Counted from the stretch's first letter, positions 1,481 to 29,039 are shown. The stretch is 32,000 nucleotides of DNA from an uncultured Chitinophagaceae bacterium (GCA_963845495.1 CAWJTH010000039.1:33676-65675), one strand, 5' to 3'. A program made the numbers and translations. Notes: a model not told the origin generated them from the letters alone.

Positions 1481-1578
1481 AGCTGTGAGCTATGAGCTAT
1501 GAGCAAAGCGCCTTTTTTACACAATATAAACCTTGAAAAAAGTTCAAAAAGCTCAAAGCTACCAGCTAAAAGCTCATG
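1481..1578. repeat. Heptamer-periodic inverted-arm element A
   Basis: The left arm is agctgtg|agctatg|agctatg|agc (1481-1504). The right arm is gctcaaa|gctacca|gctaaaa|gctcatg (1551-1578). The AGCT core recurs every 7 nt in both arms. The arms are imperfect reverse complements around a 46-nt AT-rich core. Confidence 0.6.
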
Positions 1579-6169: not shown

Positions 6170-6615
6170 AAAATAAAATGTTTACTTGTGAATAATAGTG
6201 AATAAAAAAATTCTTATTTGTAAACACCTACGGAAGAAAAGGAGGAAAAGGTTTTAAAAAAAAATAAAAAAACATTTATTCTTTTTATTGTTAATTGGCA
6301 CGGAATTTTAAAGTAATTGTGGTTTTGTAATAAATGGGGAATTTATTATCATTAAAATAGTTTTTATACTATTTAATTTTAACAAATAAGAATTAGATTA
6401 TTTATTTGACACTATGTTGGTAAAAGCTAACAAATAATGTTATTCCATAAATTTTATCGATATTAAAAAATTAAAATGTCTTTTTTATTTTTTAGATTAA
6501 AAAAATAAAAAATACCAAGTGTTTATTAAATAGCGTACAACTAATTAATTTAAGTTAGTTATGTGCTTAAAATAACGTTCAAAATAAAATCTGAAAATCG
6601 AATTTATCATATTAA

Positions 6616-6935: not shown

Positions 6936-9900
6936 TTAATTCGCAATTCCAGATTGTTTTACAAATTTAATCATCCTAGTTAAAAATAAATAAATAGCAT
7001 TCATGTTATTCATTTTTTCGATAATTAAAATCCCATTTTTACCAACCTGTTTTAATTTAGCGTTATTTACTTGTGTATTTATAAATTGCAATAATTTATT
7101 AAAAGTTTCACTTTGAAAATAGGGTGATTCGGGGTTGCTTACAAAGAAGCATTTTAATTGCGAATTACGCAACATCATTTTCTCGAAACCTAGTTCCACA
7201 GCCATTTTGCGGCACCTTACGGTAATAAATAAATCTTCTACTTCGGGTGGCATTTTACCAAACCTGTCCACCATTTCATCATGAAAATTATCTAATTCTA
7301 CATCGCTATCACAATTATCTAAACGGGTATATAAACTTAAACGTTCAGTAATATTTTCTACATAACTATCCGGAATTAATATTTCCAAATCGGTATCAAT
7401 AGAACAATCTTTTACAAAATCATCTTGCTGCTGAATTTCTTCTTTAAATAAATCTTTAAATTGTTTACGCTTTAAATCTTTAATGGCTTCATCCAATATT
7501 TTTTGGTACATCTCGAAACCAATTTCAGCAATAAATCCGCTTTGTTCGCCGCCCAATAAATTACCGGCACCACGAATATCTAAATCTCGCATCGCAATTT
7601 GGAAACCACTTCCCAAGTCGCTAAATTGTTCCAATGTGCTTAATCTTTTTCTGCTATCGGCAGGTAAAGTACTTAATGGCGGTGCCAATAAATAACAAAA
7701 TGCCTTTCTGTTGCTTCGGCCAACACGGCCACGCAATTGGTGCAAATCACTCAACCCAAATTGATGTGCATTGTTAATAATAATGGTGTTTACATTGGGG
7801 ATATCGACACCACTTTCTACAATGTTGGTACAAACCAAAACATCGTATTTTTTATCCATAAAATCGAGGATGGTATCTTCCAGTTTATCGCCTTCCATTT
7901 GACCGTGGGCGAAAGCAATAGAAAGGTCAGGACATAAGCCTTGTATCAATCCTGTCATTTCGCGAAGACCGTTTACACGGTTGTGAATAAAGAAAACCTG
8001 GCCGCCACGTTCGGCTTCAAAATAAATGGCGTCGCGGATAAATTCTTGGTTAAAAACCTGCACTTCGGTTTGCACGGGTTGCCTGTTTGGCGGCGGCGTA
8101 TTAATGATGCTTAAATCTCTTGCTCCCATCAAACTAAATTGCAAAGTGCGTGGAATTGGCGTGGCGGTTAATGTGAGCGAATCGACCGTGGTACGCAAAA
8201 CTTTTAATTTCTCTTTTGCGGCCACACCAAATTTCTGCTCTTCATCAATTACCATTAATCCCAAATCCTTAAACTTTACATCTTTACCCAAAATAGAATG
8301 TGTGCCAATTAAAATATCAACCGCTCCGCTTTCTACTTTTTTTAATGTTTCCTTTTTCTCTTTGGATGATTTAAAACGATTGATAAAATCTACTGTAACG
8401 GGAAAATCTTTCAGCCGGTCGCTAAAGTTTTTATAATGCTGATAAGCCAAAATGGTAGTCGGAACCAATATGGCGGCTTGCTTTCCATCAACACAAGTTT
8501 TGAAAGCAGCACGAATGGCCACTTCCGTTTTGCCAAAGCCCACATCGCCACAAACTAGGCGGTCCATTGGACTGTCTTTTTCCATGTCTTTCTTTACATC
8601 AGCCGCTGCTTTGGCTTGGTCGGGCGTGTCTTCGTAAATAAAACTGGCTTCCAATTCCATTTGCATGTAATTATCCGGACTATGCTGAAACCCTTTCTGG
8701 GCCTTGCGTTCAGCGTATAGCTTTATTAAATCTTCGGCAATATCTTTAATTTGTTTGGTCGTCTTTTCTTTCAACTTGCTCCAAACTTCGCTGCCCAATT
8801 TGTTCATTTTGGGCACGCTTCCCTCCTTGCCAGTATATTTTGAAATTTTGTGCAGCGATGACAAATTCACGTACAACAAATCATTGTCTTTGTAGCGTAG
8901 GCGAACTGCTTCTTGCATTTTTCCACCCACTTCTACCTTTTGTAGACCACTAAAAATACCAACACCATGGTCGATATGCGTTACATAATCGCCAACCGTT
9001 AAATCGCGAAGCGTTTTTAAAGTAAGCGCTTTATTCTTACTAAAAGCTTGTTTAACGCGGTATTTGTGGTATCGCTGAAATATTTGGTGGTCGGTATAAC
9101 AAACGGCTTTTACATCCAAATCAATAAAGCCGCCGTGGATGGCAATCGGAACAGGAACAAAGTTAATTTCCGTGTTCAAATCCCGAAAGATGGAATACAA
9201 ACGCTCCAATTGCCGGGCTTGGTCGCTAAATAAGTAAATGGTAAAATTTTGGTTTTCCCAGTTTTTTAGATCGGCAATCAGCAAATTAAAATTGCGGTTG
9301 AAACTTGGTTGTGGTTTTGTGTTGAAACCGACCACGGACCATTGACGACGGACCCCAGTTGCATCGTCGTCTGTCGTCCGTCGTCCGTCGTCGTGCTTGT
9401 TAAAATGTAATGTATGCCTTTGAAAAACCTGCCTTCCTATTTCTTTCGGCTTTACAAAATCATCCCAAAGCACTTCATGTTTCGATAAAATTTCTTCGCC
9501 TTCCTCATCTGTTTTTACTTGCGCCTTGCTTCTTGATTCTTGTACCTTGTTTTCTTCTTGCAAAGCCATAAAAATCGATACATTATCTTCCTCAGCCTCT
9601 AAAATTTCTTTTACAAACTGCCAATCGTTAAACCAAATTACCGTGTTGTCGGGCAAAAAATCCATCAATGAAACCTTTTCGCCGCTTACAAATTGGGTAT
9701 CAACATTTGGGATGATGTTTACACTAAGCAAACGTTTTTCACTTAGTTGCGTTTCGGGGTCAAACAAGCGAATGCTATCCACTTCGTTGCCAAATAATTC
9801 TACCCGATATGGTTTTTCGTTGCCAAACGAATAGATATCCAAAATACCGCCGCGTAAAGCAAATTGGCCGGGCTCGTACACAAAGTCCGACCGAGTGAAA

Positions 9901-11502: not shown

Positions 11503-11545
11503 TGAGAGCTATTCATAACATAAGTATTGGGTTATAGATATTTCG

Positions 11546-14881: not shown

Positions 14882-15862
14882 TTAATAATCATATACTTCA
14901 GGGTTAATTGGAAAAGGAATCCGTTCTCCTTTCAATCCGGCAATAATATTTTTAGCTGCCATTTCGGCCATTGCATTTCTTGTTTCAAATGTGGCAGAGC
15001 CGATATGCGGCAGCACACAAACGCTTGGCATATTTAATAATGGATTGTCTTTTTTCATGGGTTCGGGATTTGTTACATCTAACCCTGCACCCCAAATTCT
15101 ATTGTTTTGTAAGGCTTCAATTAAATCATTTTCGTTGTGAATTCCGCCCCTTGCGGTATTAATAAAAATGGCAGAACTCTTCATTTTATTAAAAGCGGCG
15201 GCATTAAATAATTCTTTTGTTTCTGGCGATAAACTTGTATGTACAGATAACACATCGCTGTATTGCAACAATTCATCAAACGACACATATTTAGCATTTA
15301 AATTTTTTTCCGCTTGCTCATTTCTATTTCTATTATGATAAATTATTTTCATGCCATAAGCACCAATACATTTTTTAGCCAACTCAAACCCAATCCGTCC
15401 CAAACCAAAAATACCAAGCGTTTTATTATTTAATTCAATACCTAAATTAGCTGTTGGCTGATAAAATTTCCACTCATCTTTTTGTATGGTTTTATTTAAA
15501 TAAAATGCCTTACGAGAAACGGCCAACATCAATAAAAAAGCAACATCAGCCGTTGCGCCGCTTAAAACACCAGGCGTATTCCCAATAGCTTTTTTTAATT
15601 TATTGGCAGCAGCAATATCTACATTATCATAACCAACAGAAAGCAACGCAATAGCTTTTAAATGATCGCATTCTTTTAAAAAGTATTCGTCAATTTTATT
15701 ATTGCCCACACTTAATAATGCATCGTAATTTTTACAAGTTGCTATTAATTCTTGTTGTGTTAAATCATACAATTCGGTATGTTGTGTAATTGTACATCCG
15801 GCGTCTTTTAGTAATTCCAAACCTTTATCTGGTATTACTCTCGTAACAAAAACTTTCATCAT
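14882..15862 (-). CDS. D-isomer-specific 2-hydroxyacid dehydrogenase (glyoxylate/hydroxypyruvate reductase-like)
   Basis: 326 aa. NAD-binding GIFGLGRIGFELAKK and the catalytic region FINTARGGIHNENDLIEAL...GAGLDVTNPEP...LPHIGSAT. Confidence 0.9.
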   Translation of the reverse strand: MMKVFVTRVIPDKGLELLKDAGCTITQHTELYDLTQQELIATCKNYDALLSVGNNKIDEYFLKECDHLKAIALLSVGYDNVDIAAANKLKKAIGNTPGVLSGATADVAFLLMLAVSRKAFYLNKTIQKDEWKFYQPTANLGIELNNKTLGIFGLGRIGFELAKKCIGAYGMKIIYHNRNRNEQAEKNLNAKYVSFDELLQYSDVLSVHTSLSPETKELFNAAAFNKMKSSAIFINTARGGIHNENDLIEALQNNRIWGAGLDVTNPEPMKKDNPLLNMPSVCVLPHIGSATFETRNAMAEMAAKNIIAGLKGERIPFPINPEVYDY

Positions 15863-17144: not shown

Positions 17145-17275
17145 GAGCTGTTAGCTATGAGCCATGAGCTGTTAGCAATTAAAAATTTGAGATTTGAGAA
17201 ATTAATTAATTTATGAAGATCACAACATGGTAAGGGCTAAAAGCTAACAGATCAAAGCTCATAGCTGGCTTTAGC
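17145..17275. repeat. Heptamer-periodic inverted-arm element B (sequence-related to element A)
   Basis: The left arm is gagctgt|tagctat|gagccat|gagctgt|tagc (17145-17176). The right arm is gctaaaa|gctaaca|gatcaaa|gctcata|gctggct|ttagc (17236-17275). It shares agctatgagc and aaagctcat with element A. The right arm overlaps the last 8 codons and the stop codon of the CDS ending at 17252. Confidence 0.6.
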
Positions 17276-28597: not shown

Positions 28598-28646
28598 TTA
28601 TCCTACAAAGAAACGAAATAGTGAATTGTGAATTGTGAATTTTCAG

Positions 28647-28806
28647 TAGTGTCTCAGTTTGAAAGTTAATGCTTTAACCGTAAAGCAAAAAGATTAATCA
28701 AATCTCAGTTCAATGTTTCTGTGCCTCAGTGGCAAATCAATATTTGCCACTGAGGCACAGAAACACTGAAACTTTTAATGCTCAACTTCAAACTGAGACA
28801 CTATCA
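28647..28806. mobile_element. 160-bp MITE-like palindromic element, copy 2
   Basis: The outer inverted repeats are tagtgtctcagtttgaa / ttcaaactgagacacta. The inner stem is a perfect 23 bp (gtttctgtgcctcagtggcaaat / atttgccactgaggcacagaaac). The element is flanked by identical 9-mers aattttcag at 28638-28646 and 28807-28815. Confidence 0.65.
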
Positions 28807-28811
28807 AATTT

Positions 28812-28994
<183 letters not shown>

Positions 28995-29039
28995 TTGGGA
29001 GTGGGTGCTTCTTACTCACCATTCACTATTCACCACTCA

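Follow-up and report, generated by a model that had tools for sequence, protein, structure and literature searches.

The 23S rRNA genes of Coxiella burnetii, Leptospira, and Brucella contain intervening sequences (IVSs), which are inserted in helix 25 or 45, form a stem of ~28 bp from terminal inverted repeats, and carry an open reading frame (ORF) of the S23p family (PF05635) in the loop. In Coxiella, where the stem has 28 bp, 2‒3 tandem GACAGAT heptamers are located in the IVS's 5′ region, just upstream of the S23p start; their number varies among strains, and RNase III cleaves within the stem, where the first repeat begins (PMC4990558). IVSs are considered to be selfish, and their origin is unknown (PMC4990558). 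Here, we analyzed a stretch of 32,000 nucleotides from an uncultured Chitinophagaceae bacterium (GCA_963845495.1, CAWJTH010000039.1:33676‒65675; hereafter the window, with positions counted from its first letter), in which an element with inverted heptamer arms follows ruvB (1474‒1578; hereafter the focal element) and loci of similar build recur. Unlike the IVSs, the elements of the window lie between protein-coding genes, with one inside a coding sequence, and neither the gene map nor Rfam gives an rRNA gene in the window.

Cyanobacterial STRR heptamer repeats were reportedly described by Mazel (1990), small hairpin elements nested in heptamer arrays, with which a 155-nt element nested at 28647‒28803 may be compared, by Elhai (2008), and structured nif spacers by Jackman and Mulligan (1995); the three studies may hold partial precedents for the loci analyzed here. 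Like these loci, the STRR and other cyanobacterial heptanucleotide repeats consist of tandem 7-nt units, are mostly intergenic, and often lie by start codons. The accessible descriptions of such repeats concern mainly direct arrays, and the inverted arms, G-first polarity, and S23p cargo reported below are not in them; the heptamer units also differ in sequence throughout. MacGregor (2015) gave one inverted set among 170 (PMC4679880). Heptanucleotide repeats are sporadic over Cyanobacteria, Beggiatoaceae, and some Bacteroidetes, and relatives often have shorter, repeat-free spacers (PMC4679880). The cyanobacterial heptamer repeats and the S23p-bearing IVSs are two old puzzles with no accepted origin or function, and they have apparently been treated separately.

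The REP, BIME, and REPIN repeats of proteobacteria are likewise extragenic and hairpin-forming, abundant in some genomes and absent in relatives, with inverted unit pairs in long stems. They are thought to be non-autonomous selfish DNA, and REPINs are near-identical copies of one 20‒40-nt sequence mobilized by the RAYT transposase. Unlike REPINs, the arms described here have an internal periodicity of 7‒8 nt and sequences that differ by locus. An earlier note on this DNA, made from the sequence alone, had matched the focal element to no described family; this cannot be upheld in view of the heptanucleotide repeats of cyanobacteria, Beggiatoaceae, and some Bacteroidetes (PMC4679880) and of the Coxiella S23p stem (PMC4990558).

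Judging from the sequences, we consider with a probability of roughly 0.5 that the window loci are gene-less members of a class of IVS-like hairpins with heptamer arms, which would be selfish or neutral DNA. The class is called IVS-like because its layout matches that of the 23S rRNA IVSs, and its full-size members carry a PF05635 gene in the loop, as the IVSs do. By its architecture, we would call it related to both the cyanobacterial tandem heptanucleotide repeats and the S23p-bearing IVSs. Inverted arms of 7‒8-nt units, a patchy distribution, occurrence in all spacer classes and in one coding linker, recurrent unit families, S23p cargo, and arm polarity characterize these hairpins. Under this reading as a whole, the locus after ruvB would be a real, decayed, gene-less member with no sign of a function of its own. 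As far as we found, the anatomy of inverted heptamer arms around S23p outside rRNA, with gene-less derivatives in spacers, appears to be undescribed. In the open literature, with many papers in subscription journals beyond reach, we found nothing that ties S23p or four-helix-bundle genes to heptamer repeats outside rRNA and no paper on gene-less heptamer-arm derivatives filling operon spacers.

Hairpin arms with a period of 7 or 8 nt

The focal element starts 5 nt past the stop codon of ruvB (431‒1468; ORF and Pfam) and ends ~200 nt ahead of the start of a gyrB-like gene. Its 5′ arm (1474‒1504) contains the units AGCTGTG AGCTATG AGCTATG AGC, its 3′ arm (1547‒1578) contains GCTCAAA GCTACCA GCTAAAA GCTCATG, and the loop between them (~1505‒1546) is AT-rich. 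The 7-nt-periodic AGCT arms described in the earlier note were confirmed by Tandem Repeats Finder as period-7 arrays at 1481‒1504 (3.4 copies, 94%) and 1547‒1574 (4 copies, 71%). That the arms are imperfect reverse complements holds in part: the inverted arms at 1474‒1498 and 1550‒1574 (25 nt, period 7) are 80% complementary, but the RNA fold is marginally better than those of shuffled sequences (z = −2.11; 7 of 200 shuffles equally good), and the complementarity is largely that of AGCT with itself. Since AGCT is its own reverse complement, pairing is automatic at 4 of each 7 arm positions. Of the two arms, the 5′ one is G-rich. Downstream of the element, the motif TATATTTG near 1679 is a putative match to TAnnTTTG, the −7 promoter consensus of Bacteroidetes.

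For comparison, we sampled the surroundings of two genes, with 80 ruvB loci taken from species-representative genomes (1.48 Mb) and 80 GCS2 loci from metagenomes (0.69 Mb). The hairpin counts below refer to ~2.17 Mb of Chitinophagaceae DNA and 162 loci (labeled by L-numbers). A lag-7 excess over shuffled controls, on which the earlier note had staked its observation, was found in both the window and the relatives. Four strict lag-7 segments occur in the window, compared with 0.2 in shuffles and 0‒1 for the other lags from 4 to 12. In the relatives, lag 7 is dominant with 72 segments versus 2‒28 for other lags, and the second, independent sample gave 54 versus 1‒15. Hairpins with periodic arms number 42 of period 7 and 14 of period 8 in the 2.17 Mb, while three block-shuffles gave 0‒1 per period each. 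A strong inverted partner was present within 500 nt for 20 of 70 period-7 arrays and 8 of 15 period-8 arrays, compared with 0‒1 for arrays of period 6, 9, or 12 and none with shuffled flanks. The distribution of these hairpins is patchy, since any are present in only 36 of the 162 loci and up to five occur in 8 kb; contig L009 has five in 8 kb, one per spacer of a haem-biosynthesis operon. Some unit families recur within one genome and across genera, namely GTGAAT/GTGAGT (GTGART), AGCT-based units, and CACATAGG. The presence of at least three head-to-tail 7-nt units and the excess of period 7 over other periods and shuffles also agree with the definition of heptamer repeats, although the published units CCCCAGT, TTGGTCA, and CAACAGT (STRR1‒3), TAACTGA, and GACAGAT have no tandem copy in the window or the 162 related loci.

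These results support the view that the window loci are one architectural class and, as the earlier note had held, not plain terminators, because there is no U-run past the 3′ arm, the stems are of 20‒35 bp, and whole spacers are filled. The likeness to intrinsic terminators is a stem-loop after a gene. While such terminators have a short GC-rich stem and a U-run, the elements have long, AT-rich stems (20‒67 nt), loops of 10‒450 nt, and no U-run after their 3′ arms. On the other hand, ordinary terminator-like GC hairpins beside A or T runs are located at the convergent gene ends (4530‒4569 and ~21600‒21625), just as the note had described.

Other described classes fit less well. The heptamer hairpins have sizes of 60‒430 nt and termini not common to the loci, which differs from miniature inverted-repeat transposable elements (MITEs); since the arm units differ and there are no common termini, copy-and-paste mobility is unsupported. 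Many near-identical units, as in REPs and REPINs, were not found within the window, where the AGCT family alone recurs (1481 and 17153), and no RAYT (IS200/IS605-like) transposase domain was found among the scanned window ORFs. Rfam gave no family match at any window hairpin locus.

In a few long heptamer arrays (L031 17169‒17487 and L141 2741‒2995), variation is confined almost solely to one unit position (CGATGNC, NCGTTTG, AAGGNAC; p = 0.003‒0.03), which is unlike the simple decay of a slipped repeat. Such concentration is not general, being seen in 5 of 59 arrays at p < 0.05. Position-specific hypervariability, as in telomerase-like or binding-site behavior, is striking in L031 and L141 only and was dropped as a general feature.

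S23p genes between inverted heptamer arms

S23p is a four-helix bundle. Its Xanthomonas homologue assembles into a homopentameric toroid, and Avd, the accessory protein of diversity-generating retroelements, is a relative of the family. The Chitinophagaceae sample contains seven PF05635 ORFs. Four of them have a flanking inverted-repeat score of at least 12, compared with 2 of 300 control ORFs, and a fifth (L120) is flanked by 19-nt arms; the loci with PF05635 in a hairpin architecture are L009, L114, L120, L122, and L159, and 5‒6 of the seven genes lie in such a loop. The arms or flanking arrays of most PF05635 ORFs have a period of 7 or 8, and the 12-nt core arm of L122 taken alone is not periodic. 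In four relatives, PF05635 ORFs lie between periodic arms at the junction upstream of GCS2. On contig L009, two of the five hairpins have loops of 410 nt, each holding a 122-residue PF05635 ORF (E = 1e-30 and 4e-14), and the AGTGAGT/AGTCAGT units in the arms of an S23p cassette recur in two gene-less hairpins of this contig. The density of other hairpins is 2.2 per 10 kb at S23p-bearing loci versus 0.34 at other loci, a comparison that is based on six loci with cassette arms included and is not relied on.

The same layout occurs outside Chitinophagaceae. A tblastn search of plasmids with one Chitinophagaceae S23p protein gave 22 records, which are mostly cyanobacterial, plus Riemerella and one Azospirillum. 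Among 13 plasmid PF05635 genes inspected, nine have inverted arms of period 7‒8 (Nostoc punctiforme, N. edaphicum, Nostoc MS1, Calothrix brevissima, Anabaena 90, Stanieria, Geminocystis, Leptolyngbya, and Riemerella). Another three are flanked on each side by direct heptamer arrays, and the remaining one has neither. Examples of these arms are GGGTGTA.../...TACACCC, GGGAACA.../...TGTTCCC, and GGTGACA.../...TGTCACC, and a reading of the flanks shows that the inverted-arm cassettes have the G-rich arm first. In 50 kb of the Nostoc punctiforme plasmid pNPUN01, five of seven heptamer arrays flank the two four-helix-bundle genes. The combination of inverted heptamer arms, the G-rich one first, with an optional S23p gene is thus common to Chitinophagaceae spacers, a Riemerella plasmid, cyanobacterial plasmids, and the Coxiella rRNA element.

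Some of the plasmid cassettes have further neighbors. On pNPUN01, an S23p cassette with heptamer arms (L178 26797‒28051) directly adjoins xisH and xisI, and TAACTGA repeats resemble XisH/XisI in phylogenetic distribution (MacGregor, PMC4679880). In two cyanobacterial CRISPR-cas operons (L171, Pseudanabaena galeata pPg_01; L175, Anabaena sp. 90 pANA02), the S23p gene is located between cas6 and cas4 and flanked by heptamer arrays. The Pseudanabaena arrays, (AAAAGCT)15 and (AAAAGCC)10, belong to the unit family of the focal element's right arm.

Polarity of the arms

Among the 56 periodic hairpins, counted over all spacer classes, G outnumbers C in the 5′ arm of 44 (44 to 12, p = 2e-5). Non-periodic inverted repeats have no such bias (213 to 191 for a G-richer 5′ arm). 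A polarity relative to transcription was considered and rejected, since an inverted repeat reads alike on both strands; therefore, the polarity is intrinsic to the element and not gene-relative. A transcript from either strand meets the G-rich arm first and ends with the G-poor arm beside the next gene. Symmetric slippage does not predict this polarity.

Anatomy of the window loci

The earlier note had listed seven loci of one heptamer architecture, and this holds for the inverted arms of six. Two of these, given there as 6616‒6773 and 25257‒25372, have a period of 8 instead of 7, and 28018‒28097 is one-sided.

The AGCT-family hairpin at 17153‒17266 has period-7 units as in the focal element and fills the spacer from a split 2-hydroxyacid dehydrogenase gene to an MFS transporter gene. 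Its arms (17153‒17181 and 17238‒17266) are 83% complementary, and its fold is well below shuffles (z = −5.08, 17133‒17270). The strings agctatgagc and aaagctcat, which the note had reported as common to the focal locus and 17145‒17275, are indeed present in both. The adjoining dehydrogenase gene (17252‒18209) is divided into two overlapping ORFs (17610‒18209 and 17252‒17689), probably by a frameshift that reflects either a pseudogene or an error of sequencing; a paralogue at 14882‒15862 is intact.

Within mfd, period-7 inverted arms occur at 9327‒9388, where GACCACG GACCATT GACGACG is mirrored by CGTCGTC TGTCGTC CGTCGTC. The arms (9327‒9350 and 9365‒9388) are 79% complementary (fold z = −4.19, 9325‒9400), and Tandem Repeats Finder gave a period-7 array at 9365‒9392. 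The period-7 inverted arms bear out the note's inclusion of 9330‒9393 in the class, but the element lies inside a coding sequence, at about residues 340‒365 of the mfd product, which an alignment shows to be a linker of variable length among homologues. With four imperfect 7-nt units at 9365‒9392 in an essential-looking repair gene, a change by one unit in either direction would put mfd out of frame and could in principle act as a low-frequency switch.

The period-8 hairpin at 6612‒6777 has arms of two CACATAGG units and of CCTATGTT GCTATGTG, with a structured loop of 124 nt. Its inverted arms (6612‒6632 and 6757‒6777) are 86% complementary (fold z = −2.53, 6600‒6790), and the octamer CACATAGG likewise forms hairpin arms in Parasediminibacterium (L024 17180). 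The hairpin lies in a 766-nt AT-rich spacer between a ferritin-like gene and mfd; this spacer (6170‒6935) has no gene, a G+C content of 25%, and several other long AT-rich inverted repeats. The second period-8 hairpin (25245‒25378; units GTGCTGAT/GTGCTAAT/TAGCTAAC) fills the spacer between an ATP-grasp-like gene and GCS2, with its arm beginning at the GCS2 start codon. Its arms (25245‒25277 and 25346‒25378) are 79% complementary (fold z = −4.45, 25245‒25380), and another contig from this strain carries it unchanged.

The largest locus is a compound element at 28617‒29044, which is nested like an onion: outer heptamer arms of (GTGAATT)n at 28617‒28648 and (ATTCACY)n at 29013‒29044 surround a 155-nt hairpin element and a one-sided 26-copy array. 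The outer arms are 81% complementary and include period-7 arrays at 28617‒28641 and 29016‒29045 (Tandem Repeats Finder), and the fold is the most distinct from shuffles (z = −9.68, 28598‒29060). The 26-copy array (28812‒28994), (CAGCGGT)13 followed by (CAGTGGT)13, is near-perfect (99%) and forms a one-sided bulge. The nested ~155-nt element (28647‒28803) has the terminal inverted repeat GTGTCTCAGTTTGAA and a core palindrome at 28709‒28770 with 28-nt arms. A second copy stands alone at 11545‒11700, and the copy-bearing stretches align at 89% mean column identity. This dispersed element looks like a MITE, and its core had no match in 163 other loci searched. A one-sided array on the plus strand (28019‒28049) reads TAGTAAT TAGATGT TAGTACT TAGTAGT TAGAC, that is, (TAGNNNN)x5; the region 28018‒28097 has no significant inverted partner and folds no better than shuffles (z = −0.04).

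An IVS-type stem of at least ~20 bp is therefore present at 17153‒17266, 25245‒25378, 28617‒29044, and 9327‒9388, and the focal element is marginal in this respect (z = −2.11). Tandem heptamers of variable number in the stem region are a further likeness, with a precedent in Coxiella (PMC4990558). Unlike those of the IVSs, the arms here are longer arrays of 3‒10 units with many unit families coexisting. The seven loci of the window have no S23p ORF; since there is no S23p gene in the window, the kinship of its loci with S23p cassettes is drawn from architecture, polarity, and unit families elsewhere.

Placement and turnover

In the window, the intergenic copies lie between co-directional genes, as the note had stated. 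The placement of these six is not significant because ~18 of 25 window spacers are co-directional, and convergent and divergent cases occur in the relatives. There, the strict periodic hairpins are distributed over 19 co-directional, 9 convergent, and 4 divergent spacers, which roughly tracks the background of 680, 273, and 267 spacers. One perfect hairpin with 31-nt arms lies between two divergent start codons.

Orthologous spacers were compared at the ATP-grasp-like/GCS2 operon junction in 71 relatives. Spacer lengths range from −1 to >1000 nt, with 18 below 40 nt. Among the 53 spacers of at least 40 nt, 16 have a significant inverted repeat, which has period-7/8 arms in 12, and these 12 hairpins use about a dozen unrelated units. 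Array copy number and unit variants differ even between the close relatives L106 and L112. The Mur-ligase/DUF983 spacer, orthologous to 28617‒29044, is ~50‒107 nt long with no such element in two relatives (L071 and L078). Among 80 related genomes, not one keeps the ruvB/gyrB neighborhood, which leaves the focal spacer without an orthologue for comparison. Co-directional hairpins in the sample have no signature of the mRNA strand: G·T and A·C mismatches on the sense strand stand at 15 to 12, and of 26 hairpins, only 10 have the more stable fold on the sense strand. These elements are dispensable and turn over rapidly at orthologous spacers, and the evidence does not indicate a host function or host-conserved RNA motifs.

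The ATP-grasp/GCS2 spacer also holds a gene of ~205 residues in seven relatives (L085, L100, L126, L130, L144, L154, and L096, where it is longer). The copy in L085 is a Uma2-family (PF05685) putative endonuclease, to which the six others were assigned by sequence resemblance alone. With Uma2-like genes in seven relatives and S23p genes in four, this junction is a hot spot of small genes that are apparently selfish. A Uma2 gene is also located near the S23p genes on the Nostoc plasmid pNPUN01.

Origin of the hairpins

If the window loci are gene-less IVS-like hairpins, their arms would grow and shrink by slippage in unit register, and the elements would be selfish or neutral DNA. They would be tolerated because any transcript would fold the element into a stem of at least 20 bp for RNase III cleavage, by analogy with the rRNA IVSs; such cleavage is known for rRNA IVSs only and is predicted for the hairpins described here. 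After cleavage, a half-stem would remain at the end of the upstream mRNA, and the leader of the downstream gene would be short and poor in G. Owing to the G-first polarity, a C-rich single strand may be shielded from Rho, and a G-poor leader would be left for initiation independent of the Shine-Dalgarno sequence. We also consider a broader, rather doubtful proposal, in which S23p may be a trans-acting partner that binds, protects, or propagates the heptamer arms. The 23S rRNA IVSs, the cyanobacterial STRR, possibly the Beggiatoaceae TAACTGA repeats, and the gene-less Chitinophagaceae hairpins would then be autonomous and non-autonomous forms of one selfish system, which would thrive in the two phyla whose translation initiation largely dispenses with Shine-Dalgarno pairing. 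If true, this link would provide a candidate substrate for S23p proteins and account for genomes that fill their spacers with heptamer hairpins. For annotation, such stems should not be taken for host terminators or regulatory RNAs. The practical message for the locus after ruvB is modest.

Several points weigh against the reading of the window loci as gene-less IVS-like hairpins. No member is weaker than the focal element, and its symmetry is partly trivial since AGCT is palindromic. No PF05635 gene or remnant was found in the 32-kb window or its loops (tblastn and hidden Markov model searches gave noise only), and the number of S23p cassettes in Chitinophagaceae is small (seven). No target-site duplication was noticed at the element ends, without a dedicated search, and arm units differ between loci. 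In addition, replication slippage that prefers 7 nt has been published for heptanucleotide repeats generally (Mrazek 2007, cited in PMC4679880). The chief rival is a purely mutational origin, in which slippage of ~7 nt and within-strand template switching at quasi-palindromes let any short spacer palindrome grow into a periodic hairpin, with expansions copied to the other arm, without element identity or a link to S23p. Such a by-product would explain why at least a dozen unrelated units occur in the orthologous ATP-grasp/GCS2 spacer, why copy number and unit variants differ between L106 and L112, why arms abut or overlap gene ends as though growth had been halted by coding constraint, and why one element sits in the indel-tolerant linker of mfd; among long simple repeats, heptanucleotides also rank first in frequency in many bacteria (PMC4679880, citing Mrazek 2007). 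We nevertheless hold it to be improbable. A G-first polarity of 44 to 12 would not be expected from symmetric slippage and template switching, and other points against it are the unit families (GTGART, AGCT, CACATAGG) that recur both at multiple loci within a genome and between genera, the highly specific association with PF05635 genes, and a patchiness as extreme as 36 of 162 loci with up to five hairpins in 8 kb. The involvement of a repeat-generating process, one of the two options in the earlier note, is supported.

The other option in that note was an intercistronic RNA selected by the host, such as processing sites, 3′-end stabilizers, or insulators that tune the expression of neighbors in the manner of REP/BIME. 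Stable folds on the transcribed strand (z of −4 to −10), filled co-directional spacers with arm ends 4‒11 nt from start codons, and the G-poor arm beside the downstream start are what this explanation predicts. It is contradicted by unrelated or missing hairpins at orthologous spacers, where 18 of 71 ATP-grasp/GCS2 spacers are below 40 nt, the remainder are very diverse, and the Mur-ligase/DUF983 spacer has no element. Spacer-class frequencies that roughly follow the background, with all classes represented, the perfect 31-nt hairpin between divergent start codons, the lack of a G·U or folding-energy bias to the sense strand, and the absence of an Rfam match also argue against it, and we regard a host processing or stabilizing role as quite unlikely. 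Least probable in our view is that the arrays are binding sites read every 7 nt by ribosomal protein S1, cold-shock proteins, or a transcription factor, or are phase-variable contingency tracts. S1 or cold-shock protein binding was proposed earlier for TAACTGA repeats, and heptamer repeats by start codons have been proposed to be regulatory in Beggiatoaceae and Nostoc (PMC4679880; bioRxiv 10.1101/2022.06.06.494920). Some arrays do combine a constant core with a variable spacer (AGCTNNN, TAGNNNN, and GACNNNN in the window; CGATGNC in L031), and the 26-copy array at 28812‒28994 should be hypermutable. However, one-position variation is limited to the 5 of 59 arrays noted above, the cores differ by locus without a single binding motif, most arrays have 3‒5 imperfect units and are poor substrates for phase variation, and the inverted pairing and S23p cargo remain unexplained.

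Source and other features of the window

The RuvB protein (431‒1468) has 85‒89% identity to Chitinophagaceae proteins, and among named relatives, Phnomibacter sp. MR and a Hydrotalea metagenome-assembled genome come first. Run ERR11523676 contains two Logan contigs that do not differ from the window over the compared stretches, so they represent the same strain and give no variation. The gene map, made from ORFs and Pfam, contains ruvB, a gyrB-like gene, two ferritin-like genes, mfd, a dsbA-like gene, an amidohydrolase, dehydrogenases, an MFS transporter, an aldolase, a TPR histidine kinase, GH19, GCS2, an ATP-grasp-like gene, vsr, and DUF983-like, Mur-ligase-like, and FGE-sulfatase-like genes.

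The sole match in an Rfam scan of the window is a tRNA gene on the minus strand (22888‒22972). A perfect 18-nt hairpin (22842‒22885) lies directly beside it, and a perfect palindrome with 29-nt arms and a 2-nt loop (23152‒23211; AAATAAAGAACATCCCTTTTATGAATGCT...) is ~180 nt away from it. In the 700-nt spacer upstream of the amidohydrolase gene, a period-21 repeat (11936‒12013) has 3.7 copies of GTAGGAAACTATTTCTTAGGC with internal inverted symmetry; 21 equals 3 × 7, yet no period of 7 is evident in this repeat.

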